From: Promethearchaeota archaeon
GTDB taxonomy: Archaea; Asgardarchaeota; Lokiarchaeia; Sigyniarchaeales; SOKP01
Length of the DNA stretch: 64,000 nucleotides
Direction: 5' to 3'
NCBI GenBank assembly: GCA_016839585.1
Contig: JAEOTZ010000042.1
Coordinates: 3,859 to 67,858, forward strand
Shown here: positions 1,477 to 63,464 of the stretch, one piece after another
Layout of the letters: every line of letters begins with the position of its first letter
Position numbering within the stretch: the first letter of the stretch is position 1
Translations under genes and position numbers: made by a program
Notes under the pieces: model-generated
Told to the model about the DNA's origin: nothing
The model's database searches: none
What the model saw: only the letters and a program-made list of their open reading frames with translations

Positions 1477-1878
1477 TTATTTCCAAATTACTAAAATACT
1501 TCCCGCAATTAAAAATGCAATAAGATAAACGATATATTCTAAAAGAAATAGTTTCATACCTCTATCGTTAAAATTCGACTGATTTATACCTATAGTTGCG
1601 ACAAATCCAATCCAAAGCAATAAACTGAGTAATAAAGCGGGACCAATCTCTGATAATCCTATTAAGATCATAACAACATCAATTACAAGTACTGTAATAA
1701 AACTTAATGGAATCATAATTATTGTTTCTTTTATAATTTTAGATTTGGGCTCACCTTCTTTACCAACTAATTTAAGCCAGAGATTTCCGAATGCAGAAGG
1801 AAAATACCAAAAAAAATGTATGGCAAAATAAATCAGAGCGACAATAGTAACTGCTAACCAATTAATTTCAATAGCCAT
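1477..1878 (-). CDS. DUF1761-like small integral membrane protein, copy A
   Basis: The ORF has 4 predicted TM segments. The N-terminus MAIEINWLAV..YFAIHFFWYFP..FGNLWLKLVGKE looks like the DUF1761 family. It is paralogous to 2673..3074. I preferred the ATG at 1878 over the TTG at 1890. Confidence 0.6.
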   Translation of the reverse strand: MAIEINWLAVTIVALIYFAIHFFWYFPSAFGNLWLKLVGKEGEPKSKIIKETIIMIPLSFITVLVIDVVMILIGLSEIGPALLLSLLLWIGFVATIGINQSNFNDRGMKLFLLEYIVYLIAFLIAGSILVIWK

Positions 1879-1985
1879 TTTAAACCACAATTTATCATTT
1901 TAATATATTTTAATAGGAATATAATTAAGCAATATTTATTTCTTATTTATTTAAATTATAACTAAAATACCTAAGTGAACTCTAA

Positions 1986-2459
1986 GTGAAAGATAAATTT
2001 AATTTAGTAGAAAAAAAAATCAAGGAATTTTCCCTGTCAAATTCTAGAGGCGAAACTAGAAATATCCGTGAATTTGAGGGTGAAAAAAATGTAGTGATTG
2101 TGCTATTCAGGAGTAAAAGTTGACCCTATGCTAAGGCTCATTCAGAAAAATTAGGAAATGATTATGAAAAATTTAGAGAACTTAATGCTGAACTATATGC
2201 AATCTTACCAGATGACCTTGAAAATGCGAAAATTTTTGAATCGAATTTTGCAAAAGAGTATGCTATATTTTATGATGATAAAAAAAAGGTAAATAAAATG
2301 TTAAAGCAAGAAGTAAAGCCTTTAAAATTGGGGAGAATGCCAGCGCTCCTTATTATAGATAAACAAGGGATTATAAGATATGCATATTATAGTGATTCTA
2401 TGGCTGATATCCCGGAGAATGAAGATTTATTTGAAGTGCTTGAGAGCTTGAATAATTAA
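1986..2459 (+). CDS. Predicted selenoprotein: PRXL2/SelU-like thioredoxin-fold redoxin (AhpC/TSA superfamily), copy A; codon 46 TGA (2121..2123) read as Sec
   Basis: GTG start at 1986, directly after an in-frame TAA. Translation: KDKFNLVEKKIKEFSLSNSRGETRNIREFEGEKNVVIVLFRSKS-U-PYAKAHSEKL...GRMPALLIIDKQGIIRYAYYSDSMADIPENEDLFEVLESLNN. It is conserved with copy B on both sides of the TGA. The TGA falls where this fold has its redox Cys (strand, then C/U-x-x-C, then helix). A conserved hairpin follows the stop. Confidence 0.65.
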
Positions 2460-2462
2460 AAC

Positions 2463-2533
2463 GATTTGGTATGAATAAAATAGAATAAATTTTTGAATTT
2501 TATTCATAAAAGTTAGCCACACTTGACCAAATC
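2463..2533 (+). promoter_or_regulatory. SECIS-like 3'-UTR hairpin, copy A
   Basis: Starts 4 nt after the stop. Lower stem 2463-2470/2526-2533 (8 bp), upper stem 2471-2481/2497-2507 (11 bp), 15-nt apical loop, and an 18-nt 3'-side bulge (2508-2525). The bulge contains AAAGTTAGCCACACT, which is identical in copy B. Confidence 0.55.
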
Positions 2534-2672
2534 ATATTTATAATTTCATGAAAAGATTTGTCCACATCTTATAAGAGTATTATAAAATAACTAGAGTTCA
2601 ATTAAGAAAATCTTATATGTTTTCGAACCTTAACACTTAAAATTAATTAAAAAAAAAATTGAAATTTTTAAT

Positions 2673-3074
2673 TTATTTCCAGACTACCAAAATACTTCCA
2701 GCAACCAAAAATCCAATAAGATAAAAGATATATTCCAATAGAAACAGTTTTAAACCTCTATCATTAAAATTAGTTTGATTTAGTCCTATCGTGGCTACAA
2801 AACCTATCCAAAGTAATAAATTTAGCAACAGTGCAGGACCAATCTCGGTTATACCTGCTAAAATCATCACTACATCTATAATTAATACGGTAATGAAACT
2901 TGTTGGAATCATTATAATTGTATCTCTTATAATCTTTGATTTAGGTTCGCTTTCTTTTCCTACTAATTTTAACCATAAATTACCGAATGCGAATGGAAAA
3001 TACCAAAAAAAATGTATTGCAAAATATATTAATGCGACTACAATAACTGCTATCCAATTAATTTCAAAAGCCAT
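2673..3074 (-). CDS. DUF1761-like small integral membrane protein, copy B
   Basis: Paralogue of 1477..1878, near-collinear with high identity by eye. I preferred the ATG at 3074 over the GTG at 3080. Confidence 0.6.
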   Translation of the reverse strand: MAFEINWIAVIVVALIYFAIHFFWYFPFAFGNLWLKLVGKESEPKSKIIRDTIIMIPTSFITVLIIDVVMILAGITEIGPALLLNLLLWIGFVATIGLNQTNFNDRGLKLFLLEYIFYLIGFLVAGSILVVWK

Positions 3075-3191
3075 TTCCACACCAAAAAATAAATTTTTAT
3101 TTTAAATTTATAATTTTTAAGGATTATATAATTAAGCTGTATTTATTTCTTCTTTATTTAAAATATAAATAAAAATTAAAATGAAGTCAAA

Positions 3192-3668
3192 ATGAAAGAT
3201 AAATTTAATTTAGTAGGCACTAAAATCTATGAGTTTAGTTTACCAAATTCTAGAGGTGAAACGATCAACATTAGAGATTTCGAAAACAAAAAAAATGTAA
3301 TAATTGTATTATTTAGAGATATCAATTGACCTTTTTGTCGATGGCATGCTGCTAGATTAAGAAGAGACCTTGAAAAATTTGAAAAATTGGATGGATTTTT
3401 GTATCCAATTTTAGTTGATAATGAAAAAAATGCTAAAAAAATGGAACAGAAATATGCAAAAAAGTACGCTGTCTTTTATGATGAATCAAAAAAAGTTGCT
3501 ACGCTGTTAAAACAAGAAAAAAGGTGGATTAAACTTGGTCGTATGCCGGGATTATTAGTAATTGACAAGAAAGGGATCATTCAATACGCCTATTATGGGA
3601 AAAGTATGCATGATATCCCAGAAAACAATGAAATATTGCAAGTTCTTGAAAAAATAAATAAAAAATAA
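3192..3668 (+). CDS. Predicted selenoprotein: PRXL2/SelU-like thioredoxin-fold redoxin, copy B; codon 46 TGA (3327..3329) read as Sec within a U-P-F-C motif
   Basis: The ATG at 3192 is in frame with track ORF 3387..3668. Translation: MKDKFNLVGTKIYEFSLPNSRGETINIRDFENKKNVIIVLFRDIN-U-PFCRWHAARLRRDLEKFEKLDGF..., which resembles the R-x-G-C-x-x-CR..A..L motif of PRXL2/SelU-type redoxins. The TGA is at the same codon as in copy A, and a conserved hairpin follows the stop. Confidence 0.75.
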
Positions 3669-3669
3669 T

Positions 3670-3738
3670 GATTTGGTAAGAATAAAATAAAAAAAAATGA
3701 GATTTTATTCTTTAAAGTTAGCCACACTTTACCAAATC
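3670..3738 (+). promoter_or_regulatory. SECIS-like 3'-UTR hairpin, copy B
   Basis: Starts 2 nt after the stop. Lower stem 3670-3679/3729-3738 (10 bp, perfect), upper stem 3680-3688/3702-3710 (9 bp, perfect), 13-nt A-rich loop, and an 18-nt 3' bulge (3711-3728) with the same AAAGTTAGCCACACT core as copy A. The stem sequences differ between copies but pairing is kept. Confidence 0.6.
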
Positions 3739-3802
3739 AAATTACAATTTATAAATATATCAAAAAGAGATATTCTCATAGGAGCATTATAAAATTAAAT
3801 CC

Positions 3803-5286: not shown

Positions 5287-5503
5287 TTTTTAATGCTAAA
5301 AGATTCATTTTTTCCTAATTCTTATTAAATTTCTAAATTGTAAATTAAAAAACTTAGTTTTAATAAATTATAACTAGAGTTTAACAATAAAATACAGAAT
5401 TCAATTAAAAAAATATTATAAACGATAAGCAAAATCATTTTAAAGATTTCTTTATTTATCGAGGTTAAGTTTGAATCATAATTATTGATTAAGATGAGAA
5501 ATT

Positions 5504-6034
5504 TTGAGTAAAGAAATTTATAAGTGGGAAATAATCGGAATGGTTTTTATTATTCTAGTCGGTTCATTTTTTCATTTTATTTTTGAATTATCTGGTGAAA
5601 ATTTAATTATCGCTGGAATCGCACCTGTAAATGAAAGTGTTTGGGAGCATTTAAAGTTAGGTTATTGGCCTTTAGTATTTTTTTCTCTAATTGAATATCG
5701 ATTTATAAAAGATGAGGCTAAAAATTTAGGAATAGCTAAATTATTGGCAGCTCTAACTATTATAGCGACAATTATCGTAATATTTTATTCCTATACTGCT
5801 ATTATTGGGGAAGAAATTTTATTTATTGATATTCTAAGTTTTATCTTAGGAGTTATTTTTGGACAAATTGTAAGCTATAAATTAATGAGTAGCTCAAAAT
5901 TACCACAATGGACTAATATGCTTTCTTGGATACTTTTTGTAGGGTTAGGATTTCTTTTTATATTATTCACGTTTTACCCACCAAAATTACCAATTTTCAA
6001 AGATGGTGTTACTGGTGGATATGGAATAGTATAA
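5504..6034 (+). CDS. Integral membrane protein, unknown function
   Basis: 176 aa with about 5 hydrophobic helices. The start is uncertain (TTG at 5504, or an internal ATG). Confidence 0.45.
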   Translation: MSKEIYKWEIIGMVFIILVGSFFHFIFELSGENLIIAGIAPVNESVWEHLKLGYWPLVFFSLIEYRFIKDEAKNLGIAKLLAALTIIATIIVIFYSYTAIIGEEILFIDILSFILGVIFGQIVSYKLMSSSKLPQWTNMLSWILFVGLGFLFILFTFYPPKLPIFKDGVTGGYGIV

Positions 6035-23612: not shown

Positions 23613-24941
23613 TTACTCTCCTTTTTTTTCCTTTATTTTCTCAATTAATTTTTCTAATATTTCTTTATCAGATAAACACTTACCAGGAGCATCTTTCACT
23701 TTTCTTAATCTTATAGGAACACTATCCATGCGGTAAGCTGTTCCTTCACATTCAATCCCTGCAATTGCTGCTGGGAAATTAATATCAGCATTCGCAGAAG
23801 TTGGTGTTTCATGCGGTTCAATAGAAATTAAAGGATGCTTAAATAAATTTTTCACGGAAGCTGCTGGAAAATTACTGGCAGGATCAGATGCAACTATCAA
23901 GGAGGCATCAATTTCATCTCTCATTAAAAGATCTACTGATGAAAATTCTCCCGGATTATATCGGGGATATCCTTTTGAGAAATCAATTGAATAAGCATAA
24001 CCCGTATTCCAAGCAAAAACAATATTAGCTCCTGTTACGTTATAATGACCCCGCATAGGCATTAGTAGAAATTTAGTATGATCATTTAATTCTCTAACTA
24101 AGGAAATGGCCGCATCAATGTTCCTATGGTGAGCTAAAGATTGAGTTAACCCCATACCAAAAAATATAACTCCAAAGTTACAAGTTTTCAAAATATTGAC
24201 TAATTCTTTGATCTTTTCCATTGGAACGCCTGAGATTTCCTTTTCATCTAATTCTACTCCTCTTACCATTGCTCTAATAGCATTTAATAATTCATAATCT
24301 TCGCTAGGTTTTATTTGAATAAATAGATCTGCTATTTGGGCAGTATGAGTATTCCTTGGATCAACAACAACAATAAATCTGTCATTTCTACCATCTTTTC
24401 TAAAATACCCCCTTACAAACTCGCTATATCTCCCAAGATGCCTTGGATGAGCATGGACGGGATTGGATCCCCAAAATATAACAAGATCTGCCCTATTTTT
24501 AAAATCTCCTAATGTTGCCATAGGTGCTCCCACATCTTGGATAGCCAATAAACTAGGACCATGACAGACTGAAGCGGTGTTATCTAAAATTCCACCTAAC
24601 AACTCTGCTAACTCAACACCTTTACTTTGAGCTTCACATTCTGTGCTAGAAAAACCATAAAGTAAAGGTCTTTTAGCACTAATTAATATTTCTGCGGCTT
24701 TATCAAAAGCTTCATCCCAAGATACTTCTTTAAATGAATCATTTTCTTTGATCCGAGGTTTGGTATATCTATGTCCACTTGGATTTGATGAAAAGAATTT
24801 TTTTGTGCCAATTTGACAACCATTCCTTATTTCTACAATCGTTTCTTCTTTAATATCTACATCAACTTCAAGATCATCACAAAGTGTGCCACAAAAAGGG
24901 CAAATAACATCAGAGATTGTTCTTAATTTCCTTTCCACCAT
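23613..24941 (-). CDS. fwdB: Formylmethanofuran dehydrogenase subunit B (Mo/W-bisPGD catalytic subunit), Cys form
   Basis: 442 aa. It has an N-terminal Cys cluster (CPFCGTLCDD) and molybdopterin oxidoreductase collinearity. The active-site region is NTASVCHGPS, with Cys and no TGA. Confidence 0.85.
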   Translation of the reverse strand: MVERKLRTISDVICPFCGTLCDDLEVDVDIKEETIVEIRNGCQIGTKKFFSSNPSGHRYTKPRIKENDSFKEVSWDEAFDKAAEILISAKRPLLYGFSSTECEAQSKGVELAELLGGILDNTASVCHGPSLLAIQDVGAPMATLGDFKNRADLVIFWGSNPVHAHPRHLGRYSEFVRGYFRKDGRNDRFIVVVDPRNTHTAQIADLFIQIKPSEDYELLNAIRAMVRGVELDEKEISGVPMEKIKELVNILKTCNFGVIFFGMGLTQSLAHHRNIDAAISLVRELNDHTKFLLMPMRGHYNVTGANIVFAWNTGYAYSIDFSKGYPRYNPGEFSSVDLLMRDEIDASLIVASDPASNFPAASVKNLFKHPLISIEPHETPTSANADINFPAAIAGIECEGTAYRMDSVPIRLRKVKDAPGKCLSDKEILEKLIEKIKEKKGE

Positions 24942-24943
24942 TA

Positions 24944-25339
24944 TTATGCCACCTTTAACGTTTTTATTAAATCAAGAGCATCTAAAACATTACCATTTTT
25001 AACTACTTCTACTTTTGCTTTCATCCCTTTATAAGTCGGTGTACCACAGGATTGAGTATCGGGATTTACAACTTGGTTAGCCCAAGGTCCCAGAGGTATA
25101 AATATTATACCCTTATGGGGACCTTCTTCAGAAATAGTAGAGTAAACCATTACTTCTCCATAATCAGTAATAACTTTAACAGGAGTTCCTACAAGGCAGT
25201 CTAACTTCTTGAAATCTTCTTTATCAAATGTACATATGGCAGCAGCTCTCACATTTTCTTTTGTTGTTTTACCACCTTCGAGTGCAACTCCCTGATTAAT
25301 TGTTCTTCCAGTCAGTAAAATCAAGTTGTTTAAACTCAT
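24944..25339 (-). CDS. fwdD: Formylmethanofuran dehydrogenase subunit D (molybdopterin dinucleotide-binding domain)
   Basis: About 131 aa from MSLNNLILLTGRTINQG. The start at 25339 forms an ATGA overlap with the upstream stop. The longer track ORF (to 25402) overlaps the polyferredoxin gene. Confidence 0.8.
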   Translation of the reverse strand: MSLNNLILLTGRTINQGVALEGGKTTKENVRAAAICTFDKEDFKKLDCLVGTPVKVITDYGEVMVYSTISEEGPHKGIIFIPLGPWANQVVNPDTQSCGTPTYKGMKAKVEVVKNGNVLDALDLIKTLKVA

Positions 25340-26085
25340 TCTTCTTTCTCCTCTTTTTCTCTCTCTCTTAAAGTCTTTAATCTTTCTAATAAAGGTTCCC
25401 AAAACATTTCACTAAATTTTCCAGATGTTTTAACATCTGTAATTTCTAACTTGACTGCACCTGTTGGACATCCATTATCACAAGCTCCACAAAATACGCA
25501 TTTTTCCTCATCCACAACTACATTTGGGACTGTTTCCCAGCCTTTATCAGACTTTTTTGGGACTGTAATTGCACCAGATGGACATACTTCGTAGCATGTT
25601 TGACATCCACCAGGGCACTCCTCATCAACAATACTTATTTTGCCGTCGGTATATTGTTTAACAACCCTCTTAATCGCGTTATAGTTCTCAATCTTTTTAG
25701 CTTCAAATTCCAGTCTGGGTACTACTTTTTCTTTTACAATTTGGATGTCTTCTAACTCAATTACTTCACCATCTTTTTTTAAAGTTAGAGCACTAAAAGG
25801 GCACATGTACACACAAGTTCCACAAAAAACACATTTTTTTGGGTCATATACCTCTGGTATAATATCTTCTAAAGTTGGGAATCGTCGGGAAGTTCCTACA
25901 GGTCCTCTTGAAATTGCCTCTTTAGGACAAACACGAGCACAAGTTCCGCAACCAACACATTTAGTTCTATCTAAAATTAATTCTAAACTTTCAGTTAAAA
26001 ATTGAACTTTTACATGTTCTATTTCTTTACTAATTGTTCTTGATATTTTTGGAAATGACATATTTTTTACCTCATTTACTTTCAA
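25336..26085 (-). CDS. fwdF: Polyferredoxin (FwdF-like, about four [4Fe-4S] motifs)
   Basis: 249 aa with four CxxCxxCxxxCP-type motifs, located within the fwd operon. Confidence 0.7.
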   Translation of the reverse strand: MKVNEVKNMSFPKISRTISKEIEHVKVQFLTESLELILDRTKCVGCGTCARVCPKEAISRGPVGTSRRFPTLEDIIPEVYDPKKCVFCGTCVYMCPFSALTLKKDGEVIELEDIQIVKEKVVPRLEFEAKKIENYNAIKRVVKQYTDGKISIVDEECPGGCQTCYEVCPSGAITVPKKSDKGWETVPNVVVDEEKCVFCGACDNGCPTGAVKLEITDVKTSGKFSEMFWEPLLERLKTLREREKEEKEE

Positions 26086-61014: not shown

Positions 61015-61470
61015 TCACCACTCCGTTTCAAATTTTTTGTTTGGTCCAAGTTTCTTTACATTATTTGTTACTTTTTTAATTAAAGTCGCAAATCTATCAC
61101 CTTCTGATGCAGAAGACCACATGAAAGTAACTCTATCAGGATCTATCCCGAAAAGTTTTAATAAATCTTGTAAAATCGCAAAACGTCTTCTTGCAACTAA
61201 ATTTCCACTAATGTAATGGCAATCACCTGGATGACATCCCGAGACAACAACACCATCCCAGCCTCTTAATAAACTTTTAATTATGAAAAAAGGATTTACT
61301 CTTCCTGAACATGGAACCCTTACTATTCTAATATTTGAGGGATATTGGATTCTACTAACACCTGCTAAATCCGCTCCAGCATAAGAACACCAATTACAGA
61401 GAAATGCAATTATTTTTGGCTCCCATTCTTTTTTATCTTCTGATTGTGTTTTTACTTTACTCGTTAAAGT
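61015..61470 (-). CDS. mvhD: MvhD/FlxD homologue ([2Fe-2S] electron-transfer subunit); start undefined, with no ATG/GTG/TTG ahead of the conserved domain
   Basis: Hand translation of the minus strand gives TLTSKVKTQSEDKKEWEPKIIAFLCNWCSYAGADLAGVSRIQYPSNIRIVRVPCSGRVNPFFIIKSLLRGWDGVVVSGCHPGDCHYISGNLVARRRF...ETEW*. The frame is bounded upstream by TGA (61473..61471). The ORF track does not list it. Confidence 0.75.
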   Translation of the reverse strand, partial: TLTSKVKTQSEDKKEWEPKIIAFLCNWCSYAGADLAGVSRIQYPSNIRIVRVPCSGRVNPFFIIKSLLRGWDGVVVSGCHPGDCHYISGNLVARRRFAILQDLLKLFGIDPDRVTFMWSSASEGDRFATLIKKVTNNVKKLGPNKKFETEW

Positions 61471-63464
61471 TCACCCCCCATTATTATTGAAAATATCTGT
61501 TCGCCAGTAAAGCCAATGATATCTATTGCTGAACATCTACAATTACCAGAACAAGCACCACACCCTTTACATAGAGCTTCATTTATTTTAGCTACTGTAC
61601 CAAACCATTTATCCTCAACAAGCTCAATAGCCCCATAAGCACAATTTTCAACGCACATACCACAACCAATACAACGTTCAGGGCGAACGACAGCAAAAAA
61701 TGGTTCTATCTCAACTTCACCCTGAGACATTAACACAGCTGCGCTTGAAGCGGCTCCTTTAGCCTGAGCAACAGCATCAGGAATATCTTTTGGACCTTGC
61801 GCAACACCAGCTATAAAGATACCCTCTGTTAAAGTGTCTACTGGTCGCAATTTTGGATGGGCTTCTAAAAAAAATCCATCTGCTGATCTTTGTATTCTTA
61901 ATAGAGAAGTTATTATATCTGCATCTGCTCGAGGCTCTAAACCACAAGATAAAACAAACAAATTTACTGTTAATTCAATTGGTTGTTGAAGTAAAGTATC
62001 TTCAGCTCTTATGATAATATTGTGATCATCATCTTCGATTACCTCTGCTATTCTTCCTCTCATAAAATTGATTCCGTAATTTTGCCCTGCAGATTCGTAA
62101 AATTCTTCATAACCTTTTCCAAAAGCTCGAATATCCATATAAAAAATATAAATATCTGCATCTGGATGCTTTTCCTTATATTGCCTTGCTTGCTTGGTTG
62201 CATACATACAGCAAACTCTTGAACAATATTGATTTCCTCCTTCTCTGAAATTTCTACTTCCCACACATTGAAGAAAGGCAATGCTATGGGGTTCTTTAAG
62301 ATCCGAAGGTCTAACAGGCTTTCCTATAACTGGTCCAAAAGAACTTAATAAACGCTCCATTTGAAGTCCAGTAATAACATTAGGGTATCTCCCATAGCCA
62401 TATTGTTTGAGTTCAGTAGGATCATATAAATCCCATCCTGTAGCAACGATTATTGTGCCTACCTTAATTTTCAAATATTCTGGTTTATCATCAAAATTAA
62501 TCGCTTCAGGTTCACATACATCTATTCTTGCACATATTCCGCATTTAATACAATTGTCCATATCAATCGTATATTGTCCAGGTATAGCTTGAGGGAATGG
62601 AATGTAAATTGCTTTTCTTGTGGCTAATCCGAGTTCAAATTCGTTTCCAACGACAACAGGACAATAATCAACACATACTCCGCAACCAGTACATTTCTCT
62701 TGATCTACGTAATGTGGTTTTTTTAAAATAGTAACTTCGAAATTTCCTATAAAACCAGAGACTTCTACTACTTCGGAATAGGTTAAAAGTTCAATATTTT
62801 TCTCACGTGAAATCTCAGACATTTTGGGGGTAAGTATACAACTCGAACAATCCATAGTTGGGAACGTTTTATCAAGTTGAGCCATATGACCACCTATTGT
62901 AGGCGTTTTTTCAATTAAATATACTTTATAACCCTCTGTAGCCAGGTCCAATGCAGCATTCATTCCTGCAACTCCTCCTCCTATTATTAAACAAGAGGGT
63001 TCTACTTTCACTTTCTGGACTTCTAGTGGTTTTAACTCCCTTGCTTTTGCTACAGCCATTCTAATATGGTCTTTAGCGATTTCATATGCTCCTTCTGGAT
63101 CTCTCATATGAACCCATGTTGAGTGTTCTCTAATATTTGCCATTTCAAATAAAAATTGGTTCAAACCAGCTTCTTTACAAGTGATTCTAAAAGTAGGTTC
63201 ATGCATCCTTGGAGAACATGCAGCAACAACAACTCTATTTACCAATCCCGCTTCAATATCTTCCTTTATAATCTTCTGCCCTACATCAGAACAAAAGAAT
63301 TTATATTCTTGTGCTACTTCTACGTTTGGAAGTGTTTTTGTATATTCTACCAAATCTGGAACTGAAACAACACCACCAATGTTGACACCGCAATGACATA
63401 TATAAACTCCAATTTTAGGTCTTTCATTACCAGTAACTTTTATTTCTTTTTTAGCTTCTGTCAT
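61464..63464 (-). CDS. hdrA: Heterodisulfide reductase subunit A (FAD, multiple Fe-S), Cys form
   Basis: 666 aa. It has an N-terminal Cys domain (ICHCGVNIGG), GGGVAGMNAA, DKTFPTMDCSSC, inserted and C-terminal ferredoxin motifs, and overall HdrA collinearity. Confidence 0.9.
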   Translation of the reverse strand: MTEAKKEIKVTGNERPKIGVYICHCGVNIGGVVSVPDLVEYTKTLPNVEVAQEYKFFCSDVGQKIIKEDIEAGLVNRVVVAACSPRMHEPTFRITCKEAGLNQFLFEMANIREHSTWVHMRDPEGAYEIAKDHIRMAVAKARELKPLEVQKVKVEPSCLIIGGGVAGMNAALDLATEGYKVYLIEKTPTIGGHMAQLDKTFPTMDCSSCILTPKMSEISREKNIELLTYSEVVEVSGFIGNFEVTILKKPHYVDQEKCTGCGVCVDYCPVVVGNEFELGLATRKAIYIPFPQAIPGQYTIDMDNCIKCGICARIDVCEPEAINFDDKPEYLKIKVGTIIVATGWDLYDPTELKQYGYGRYPNVITGLQMERLLSSFGPVIGKPVRPSDLKEPHSIAFLQCVGSRNFREGGNQYCSRVCCMYATKQARQYKEKHPDADIYIFYMDIRAFGKGYEEFYESAGQNYGINFMRGRIAEVIEDDDHNIIIRAEDTLLQQPIELTVNLFVLSCGLEPRADADIITSLLRIQRSADGFFLEAHPKLRPVDTLTEGIFIAGVAQGPKDIPDAVAQAKGAASSAAVLMSQGEVEIEPFFAVVRPERCIGCGMCVENCAYGAIELVEDKWFGTVAKINEALCKGCGACSGNCRCSAIDIIGFTGEQIFSIIMGGEL

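Follow-up and report, generated by a model that had tools for sequence, protein, structure and literature searches.

Two PrxL selenoprotein genes stand in tandem in a 64-kb stretch of DNA from a Promethearchaeota archaeon (contig JAEOTZ010000042.1 of assembly GCA_016839585.1; hereafter, the window), and each is followed at its stop codon by a structured RNA element. We propose that each element is the selenocysteine insertion sequence (SECIS) in the 3' untranslated region (UTR) of the PrxL mRNA that it follows, and we give this reading a probability of roughly 0.8. On sequence comparison, the PrxL element is a predicted kink-turn-less, PrxL-family variant of the Asgard SECIS. The two copies are designated SECIS-A (2461-2535) and SECIS-B (3668-3740), and both are on the plus strand.

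PrxL-A (1986-2460, plus strand) has a GTG start and a TAA stop (2458-2460) and encodes a protein of the AhpC/TSA-redoxin fold with the redox box U-P-Y-A. Its in-frame TGA (2121-2123), the selenocysteine (Sec) codon, is aligned to the Cys of CPFC homologues and lies 342 nucleotides (nt) upstream of SECIS-A. PrxL-B (3192-3668, plus strand; TAA stop, 3666-3668) has the redox box U-P-F-C, and its Sec codon (TGA, 3327-3329) lies 343 nt upstream of SECIS-B. The TGA takes the first position of the redox box in both genes. The TAA of PrxL-B is followed by an in-frame TGA (3669-3671), whose G3670 and A3671 open the first helix of the element. PrxL homologues carry PF00578/PF08534. PrxL-A and PrxL-B fall in separate paralogue clades, UPYA(K) and UP[FY]C, respectively, both of them old and present in many genomes; the PrxL-A orthologues make up the UPYAK clade, and PrxL-B has a 94%-identical homologue at locus L001. 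Because the protein sequence downstream of the UGA is conserved across the PrxL family, the UGA must be read through. Directly after the two UGA codons (2115-2185 and 3321-3391), the RNA folds no better than shuffles (z = +1.2 and 0.0, respectively), and a bacterial-type SECIS, that is, a hairpin in the coding sequence about 11 nt after the UGA, was rejected since no structure was found there. The PrxL family is already listed among selenoproteins in the supplement of Huang et al. (2024; PMC11227280), and SECIS elements downstream of PrxL genes have been reported (PMC4989117; PMC11227280).

Some further features of these genes were observed. In PrxL-A, Ala replaces the resolving Cys, so that Sec is the only redox residue. 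Gene calling in public records errs systematically for the PrxL family, as in proteins P0001, P0007, P0010, and many more. Some calls are cut down to the 89-106 amino acids after the TGA. Others, of code-4 style and on short contigs, put Trp at the Sec position, and some of these run past a UGA stop into the SECIS (...NKKQWFGGNKIIKMRFYS).

Both elements fold into a three-way junction of three helices, P1, P2, and P3. In SECIS-A, P1 is formed by 2463-2470/2526-2533, P2 by 2471-2481/2497-2507, and P3 by 2510-2513/2521-2524; the apical loop spans 2482-2496 (AGAAUAAAUUUUUGA) and the P3 loop 2514-2520 (UAGCCAC). In SECIS-B, the helices are P1 3670-3678/3730-3738, P2 3680-3688/3702-3710, and P3 3715-3718/3726-3729, with the apical loop at 3689-3701 (AAAAAAAAAUGAG) and the P3 loop at 3719-3725 (UAGCCAC). 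The element starts 2 nt after the TAA stop in copy A and 1 nt after it in copy B, and P1 (GAUUUGG.../...CCAAAUC) closes it at the stop codon. P2 is 9 base pairs (bp) long in copy B (GAAUAAAAU/AUUUUAUUC); copy A adds 2 bp to the same helix, for a total of 11 bp. The A-rich apical loop ends in UGAG in copy B and UUGA in copy A. P3 comprises 4 bp and a 7-nt loop (AAGU-UAGCCAC-ACUU), and each element has a run of 19-20 paired bases on its 5' side.

A preliminary description of this DNA had noted an extended hairpin of the same architecture in both 3' UTRs, and folding of the two regions confirmed it. The minimum free energy was -16.7 kcal/mol for copy A (2463-2533) and -15.7 kcal/mol for copy B (3670-3738), with z = -3.5 and -4.0, respectively, against dinucleotide shuffles. 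The identical 15-mer AAAGTTAGCCACACT, said there to be kept while the flanks diverged, indeed occurs exactly twice in the window (2509-2523 and 3714-3728), and identity between the copies is 38% in the DNA that follows the elements. Two other statements had to be revised. The supposed 18-nt bulge is really a 4-bp mini-hairpin, P3, which is backed by compensatory changes in relatives and turns the hairpin into a three-way junction. The stems were also said to differ between the copies with pairing kept; they are near-identical (92-95% in the helices and 65% in the PrxL coding sequences), and the covariation comes from 79 homologous elements instead. The copies differ only at the junction, where U2472/A2506/G2525 of copy A stand against A3679/U3711/U3730 of copy B and shift 2 bp from P2 to P1.

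The homologous elements were collected by a protein-guided scan with one genome per species, which gave 80 PrxL loci. The sequences searched in this study were chosen around PrxL and VhuD genes and are not whole genomes. A Sec-type TGA was present at the redox-box position in 79 of the 80 loci, and in all 79 the element was found 0-34 nt after the stop. The sole exception (L075, D-L-F-C, Helarchaeota) has neither TGA nor element. The metagenome-assembled genomes (MAGs) that carry the loci are labeled Promethearchaeota/Promethearchaeia and Hermod-, Thor-, Jord-, Frey-, Atabey-, Borr-, Hod-, and Odin-archaeota, and the cultured hosts P. syntrophicum (L080) and L. ossiferum (L070) are among them. 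What had been put forward as a possible lineage-specific SECIS form is thus specific to a gene family, PrxL, and spread over MAGs of many Asgard labels.

Covariation was tested on 79 distinct elements by explicit pair counting in a MAFFT alignment made blind to structure. The three-helix model paired 87.9% of the cells, versus at most 56% with the partners slid by 1-3 columns. Changes on both sides were found at 21 of 23 pairs, all three helices covaried, and none of 500 shuffles attained the observed values. Compensatory changes in P3 included G-C to C-G, or the reverse, in nine sequences and A-U to G-C, or the reverse, in nine; the P3 stem of L. ossiferum is AGCG/CGCU, and that of P. syntrophicum is GGUG/CACC. 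The first two pairs of P2 (G-C and A-U) covary to GG/CC, UG/CA, AG/CU, and AA/UU and are therefore ordinary Watson-Crick pairs (pair 16-54: GC 65, AU 8, GU 4, UA 1; pair 17-53: AU 66, GC 5, GU 5). The last four bases of the apical loop are mostly UGAG, UUGA, UGAU, or UGAC across the family. Given weak, A-U-rich helices and misaligned 3' ends, RNAalifold recovered P2 only from the raw MAFFT alignment. T-runs frequently follow the element in other PrxL loci. What looks like a structured RNA gene was noticed at locus L033 (about 280-400), where G+C-rich sequence interrupts the otherwise AT-rich intergenic DNA upstream of a gene for cysteinyl-tRNA synthetase.

A covariance model of the PrxL element (R1) was run on both strands of the window and the 80 loci, 0.53 Mb in total. 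At E ≤ 2.5e-4, it gave 84 plus-strand matches, of which 83 followed intact Sec-PrxL genes and one followed a PrxL C-terminal fragment (L015). Exactly two matches lay in the window, SECIS-A (87.8 bits) and SECIS-B (90.4 bits). Minus-strand scores were at least 60 bits below those of the plus strand. The plus strand is taken as the functional one because the model scores 88-90 bits on it versus 20-26 bits on the minus strand, and because G-U pairs are frequent in PrxL elements. A weaker match (26.2 bits, E = 0.008) followed a PrxL fragment in L070. These C-terminal fragments (L015, 3549-3941; L070, about 5400-5710) are apparent pseudogene remnants that retain a well-scoring element. All matches at the E ≤ 2.5e-4 threshold in the 0.53 Mb searched were PrxL-linked.

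The element follows every TGA-containing PrxL homologue fetched, 84 intact genes in all. After four non-Sec homologues, L075 (DLFC), L081 (CPFC), the second gene of L082 (CPFC), and L083 (DPFC, short flank), nothing scored above 12.5 bits with R1, even with filters off. The contrast is also found on a single contig: in L082, a TGA paralogue has the element (1370-1445, 70 bits), whereas the next gene, a C-P-F-C paralogue, is without it. The earlier proposal of SECIS candidates thereby gains strong comparative support, namely perfect co-occurrence with the Sec-TGA in the PrxL family and absence after Cys/Asp paralogues. A two-Sec paralogue of Borrarchaeum (box U-G-H-U; L058/L061, about 2330-2810) has its own copy of the element. 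The Borrarchaeum two-Sec sequences in the supplement of PMC11227280 (file 79) end at the second Sec (...KKGLAXGH) and are hence truncated.

The published SECIS of Lokiarchaeota (lokiSECIS) consists of AUGA, a 9-bp stem, an 11-nt loop that starts with A's and ends with AG, and then GA, and it sits at the stop codon of VhuU, HdrA-VhuD, and PrxL genes (PMC4989117). For comparison, 80 metagenomic loci of two-Sec VhuD/FrhD genes (L084-L163) were used. The canonical lokiSECIS of VhuD is likewise embedded in a three-way junction, which comprises the closing helix P1, the kink-turn, a 9-bp P2, the loop AAAAAAAUGAG, a side hairpin P3 (AUGG-nnGCa-CCAU), and the return strand of P1. The example of L084 reads AUGUGUU-UA-CU-GAU-GA-[GACUGAGUU-AAAAAAACGAG-AACUCAGUU]-GA-AG-AA-[AUGG-CUGCA-CCAU]-AUA-ACACAU. 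AUGA with tandem G-A/A-G pairs was present in 41 of 41 clade-1 VhuD elements, and all had a 2-bp C-stem (CU/AG). In this clade, P2 covaries, P3 is AUGG/CCAU with the loop nnGC(A/C), and the apical loop matches AAAAAAAUGAG exactly or nearly. Another VhuD clade follows the same plan with other helices: P1 is ACCGA.../...UCGGU, the C-stem is AG/CU, and P3 is ACC.../...GGU, with loops containing GCA.

A covariance model built from VhuD clade 1 (R2) gave held-out VhuD elements 74-92 bits. In a 2-kb search with filters off, it aligned end to end with 3669-3739 (25.9 bits, E = 1.6e-6) and with 2462-2534 (15.1 bits, E = 0.004). The sole large gap in the alignment with copy B was a seven-base 'CugAUGA' segment and its 3' partner (GA), i.e., the kink-turn module. 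With default filters, R2 missed most PrxL elements, both window copies included, and R1 missed the VhuD elements. A strict scan for AUGA, 9 bp, 11 nt, and GA found nothing in any PrxL 3' UTR, yet it found every VhuD element. The possibility of a canonical lokiSECIS at some other place in the 3' UTRs or in the window was rejected, as pattern scans yielded only chance matches inside coding regions (e.g., L033, 655; L060, 2612). The geometry that had been called unusual is thus the known Lokiarchaeota architecture of 9-bp helix, apical-loop consensus (in copy B), side hairpin, and closing helix, minus the kink-turn module.

Three ideas for a hidden interaction were tried and rejected. A k-junction or kink-turn formed from 'GGU-AUGA' of copy A and the GA beside P1 has no counterpart in copy B or the majority of homologues, and the covariation of the GA at the base of P2 is that of Watson-Crick pairs. 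For a reversed kink-turn, with NGA at the start of the apical loop and AUGA at its end, the 5' side is not conserved and VhuD loops share the 3' motif, which is kept here as a loop motif only. Kissing of the P3 loop (AGCC/GCCA) with GGCU (copy A) or UGGC (copy B), which lie 12-18 nt downstream of the UGA, was dismissed because the complement tracks Trp-His codons and is lost in clades with the same P3 loop.

A mechanism can be suggested from these features. The PrxL transcript would fold into the P1/P2/P3 three-way junction in its 3' UTR. By analogy with archaeal and eukaryotic 3'-UTR SECIS, the folded RNA would recruit EFSec/aSelB with Sec-tRNA-Sec, directly or through a SECIS-binding protein, and the UGA about 342 nt upstream would be read as Sec instead of stop. 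Stop codons that touch or are embedded in P1, UGA in several homologues, would be too near to be recoded, as Mariotti et al. (2016; PMC4989117) argued. The likeliest recognition determinants are the features common to PrxL and VhuD, namely the P2 length, the apical-loop motif, and a junction-held P3 with a GC(A/C) loop. We infer actual Sec insertion, the binding partner, and the dispensability of the kink-turn from established Sec decoding and the PrxL/VhuD comparison; the kink-turn may be dispensable, or it may have an extra role such as binding of an L7Ae-family protein. A wider proposal can be made only tentatively, and we hold it to be somewhat short of an even chance: Asgard SECIS may be modular three-way junctions with an invariant 9-bp helix, an A-rich...UGAG loop, a GC(A/C) side hairpin, and an optional kink-turn, and PrxL may insert Sec without a kink-turn superphylum-wide.

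Several points weigh against the SECIS reading. The kink-turn is held essential in eukaryotic SECIS, and an element without one might need an undetected helper feature. Support for SECIS function in Asgard archaea is comparative only. The element was found beside one gene family only, so that its link to Sec cannot be fully separated from a link to the PrxL subfamily. The non-Sec controls number four, one with a short flank, and the E-values of the models are rough, owing to a shortened calibration. Finally, the PrxL lokiSECIS has been stated to be always flanked by AUGA and GA (PMC4989117).

A rival view, as published for Asgard prxL genes, is that the elements are canonical eSECIS-like structures of type I in which a non-Watson-Crick quartet, GA/[G/A]A, lies at the foot of the upper helix; nothing about them would then be unusual. 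Huang et al. (2024; PMC11227280), who generalized the lokiSECIS to 'eSECIS-like' types, gave type I as the major form for prxL. Their loose type I pattern, re-implemented here without its indels, can overlay P2 in 51 of 76 loci, and copy A has AUGA at the P2 base (2471-2474). However, these overlays need shifted registers and two mismatches (e.g., AAGAA...UUAAA in L001), and the pattern matched all 76 PrxL 3' regions (630 nt, AT-rich) as well as all 76 of their mononucleotide shuffles. It cannot distinguish a kink-turn core from A-U-rich sequence, and the reported 85% of Asgard selenoprotein genes with a type I structure may say little. AUGA at the P2 base is confined to copy A and a few copy-A-like elements (L068, L072, and L074); copy B has AAGA, and other clades are without it. 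Moreover, the GA at this place pairs with UC and covaries as Watson-Crick pairs, the strict scan was blank for PrxL only, and R2 deleted the kink-turn columns. A type I structure is therefore very unlikely. It is very unlikely, too, that the element is PrxL-specific but has another role, such as mRNA stability, transcript end formation, or a redox/selenium regulator site, with Sec insertion directed otherwise. Its occurrence only after PrxL genes, its lack of the kink-turn regarded as a hallmark of Asgard and eukaryotic SECIS, and the T-runs behind it in other loci would fit such a role. Against it, the element is absent after Cys/Asp paralogues, even in tandem on one contig (L082), neither the coding sequence past the UGA nor the 3' UTR showed another conserved structure, and the helix length, apical-loop motif, and P3 loop are common with the VhuD lokiSECIS. 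An intrinsic terminator (G+C-rich hairpin and T-run) was rejected, as there is no terminator-like site at 2461-2535 or 3668-3740. Chance hairpins that are alike through recent tandem duplication have next to no probability. AT-rich DNA does fold readily, and the window does hold a tandem duplication of DUF1761 and PrxL genes. Nevertheless, the helices are far more alike than the coding or downstream DNA, the paralogues are old, with both clades in many genomes, and the covariation extends over 79 distinct elements; this explanation is already refuted.

The SECIS reading of the PrxL element bears on how Asgard SECIS are understood. The eukaryotic kink-turn SECIS has been portrayed as a descendant of the Asgard one. 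PrxL can be regarded as a natural deletion experiment, an Asgard-wide selenoprotein family with the rest of the predicted SECIS but no kink-turn. From this, the motif in the apical loop and the side hairpin with its GC(A/C) loop emerge as candidates for the parts that are recognized. RNAs of the VhuD and PrxL types form a matched pair for binding and reporter tests. If the kink-turn is optional, the archaeal SECIS reader would recognize the loop and P3 and not the kink-turn, and the account of an AUGA/GA core inherited from Asgard archaea would hold for some genes only. For annotation, searches that require AUGA/GA will miss or mis-register PrxL elements, the loose pattern is non-discriminating in AT-rich DNA, and gene callers mis-annotate PrxL genes by a cut at the TGA or by Trp read-through into the SECIS. 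No mention of the P3 hairpin, the three-way junction, or the C-stem switch of the lokiSECIS was found in the text of the published Asgard SECIS descriptions consulted. Two things look new here, the explicit account of a three-way junction that includes a conserved P3 and the documented lack of a kink-turn in PrxL; the main uncertainty about novelty is the relation to the PrxL elements of PMC4989117.

The rest of the window was also inspected. Its G+C content is about 30%. An Asgard (Lokiarchaeia-like) origin is indicated by this value, by the presence of HdrA, MvhD, and Fae genes, and by the closest PrxL relatives, all from Promethearchaeota/Lokiarchaeota and other Asgard MAGs. The tandem duplication (1477-3740) is of a two-gene unit in which a plus-strand PrxL gene is paired with a minus-strand gene for a DUF1761 membrane protein (1477-1890 in one unit, 2673-3080 in the other). 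Other genes encode HdrA, an MvhD-like protein, a DHDPS-Fae fusion, and a B12-dependent ribonucleotide reductase. TGA is an ordinary stop elsewhere in the window, with long open reading frames (ORFs) unbroken under table 11. HdrA (666 amino acids; 61464-63464, minus strand) and the adjoining downstream MvhD/VhuD-like ORF (61015-63464 for the pair, minus strand) are both Cys forms with no in-frame TGA, and no lokiSECIS was found after them. PrxL is thus the sole predicted Sec user in this 64-kb stretch. Other TGA-bridged ORFs of the window were rejected as selenoprotein genes; they resemble frame noise, and R1 and R2 found no further elements. A molybdopterin-oxidoreductase gene (23613-25402, minus strand) is apparently split into ORFs 24944-25402 and 23613-24941 in different frames, which could reflect two subunits, a frameshift, or an assembly error; a Sec site is unlikely.

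Compared with the lokiSECIS, the PrxL element shares its place, in the 3' UTR and abutting or overlapping the stop of a gene with an in-frame Sec-UGA (79 of 79 Sec-type loci). The 9-bp main helix is common to PrxL copy B and VhuD, as is the 11-13-nt apical loop with an A-run at its start and AG at its end (AAAAAAAAAUGAG in copy B; AAAAAAAUGAG in VhuD). Two further parts, the P1 closing helix and a P3 side hairpin with GC(A/C) in its loop, are shared with the VhuD examples that were fetched. Against the lokiSECIS loop, which has about 11 nt with a 5' A-run and a final G that mostly follows an A, that of copy B has 13 nt with the motif present, whereas that of copy A has 15 nt and ends in GA instead of AG. 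The PrxL element differs in that its main helix is not flanked by AUGA on the 5' side and GA on the 3' side. Where the lokiSECIS has GA or AA, the 3' flank is UUUA in copy B and AA in copy A. It has neither the 2-bp C-stem nor the 3-nt bulge, and hence no kink-turn; P2 exits the junction directly, with its first two pairs Watson-Crick and covarying. The P3 loop is UAGCCAC in PrxL and nnGCa in VhuD, and the primary sequences differ so far that the model of each family misses or barely detects the other.

The preliminary description had matched the elements to neither the eukaryotic AUGA/GA kink-turn nor the methanococcal GAA/A form; both were tested and neither was found. An Rfam search including all SECIS models gave no family at gathering score or at E ≤ 10. 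With eukaryotic SECIS (type I; Rfam SECIS_1), the PrxL element shares the 3'-UTR site, a UGA upstream at a distance, a lower helix, a large internal region, an upper helix, and unpaired apical A's. It differs in having no AUGA/GA quartet and a shorter upper helix, and a structured hairpin takes up the 3' side of its 'internal loop'. Asgard archaea are not known to have SBP2 (PMC4989117). The euryarchaeal SECIS of Methanococcales and Methanopyrus is likewise archaeal and sits in the 3' UTR near the stop codon, whereas the PrxL element lacks the GAA/A internal bulge and consecutive G-C pairs, and its P2 is uninterrupted and A-U rich family-wide. The type II-like SECIS of Loki SPS/SelD genes (PMC4989117) gives a precedent for one Asgard selenoprotein family having its own variant, undetected by the general lokiSECIS model. 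The SPS form keeps the AUGA/GA core and has an apical mini-stem, whereas the PrxL element loses the core and keeps a simple apical loop.

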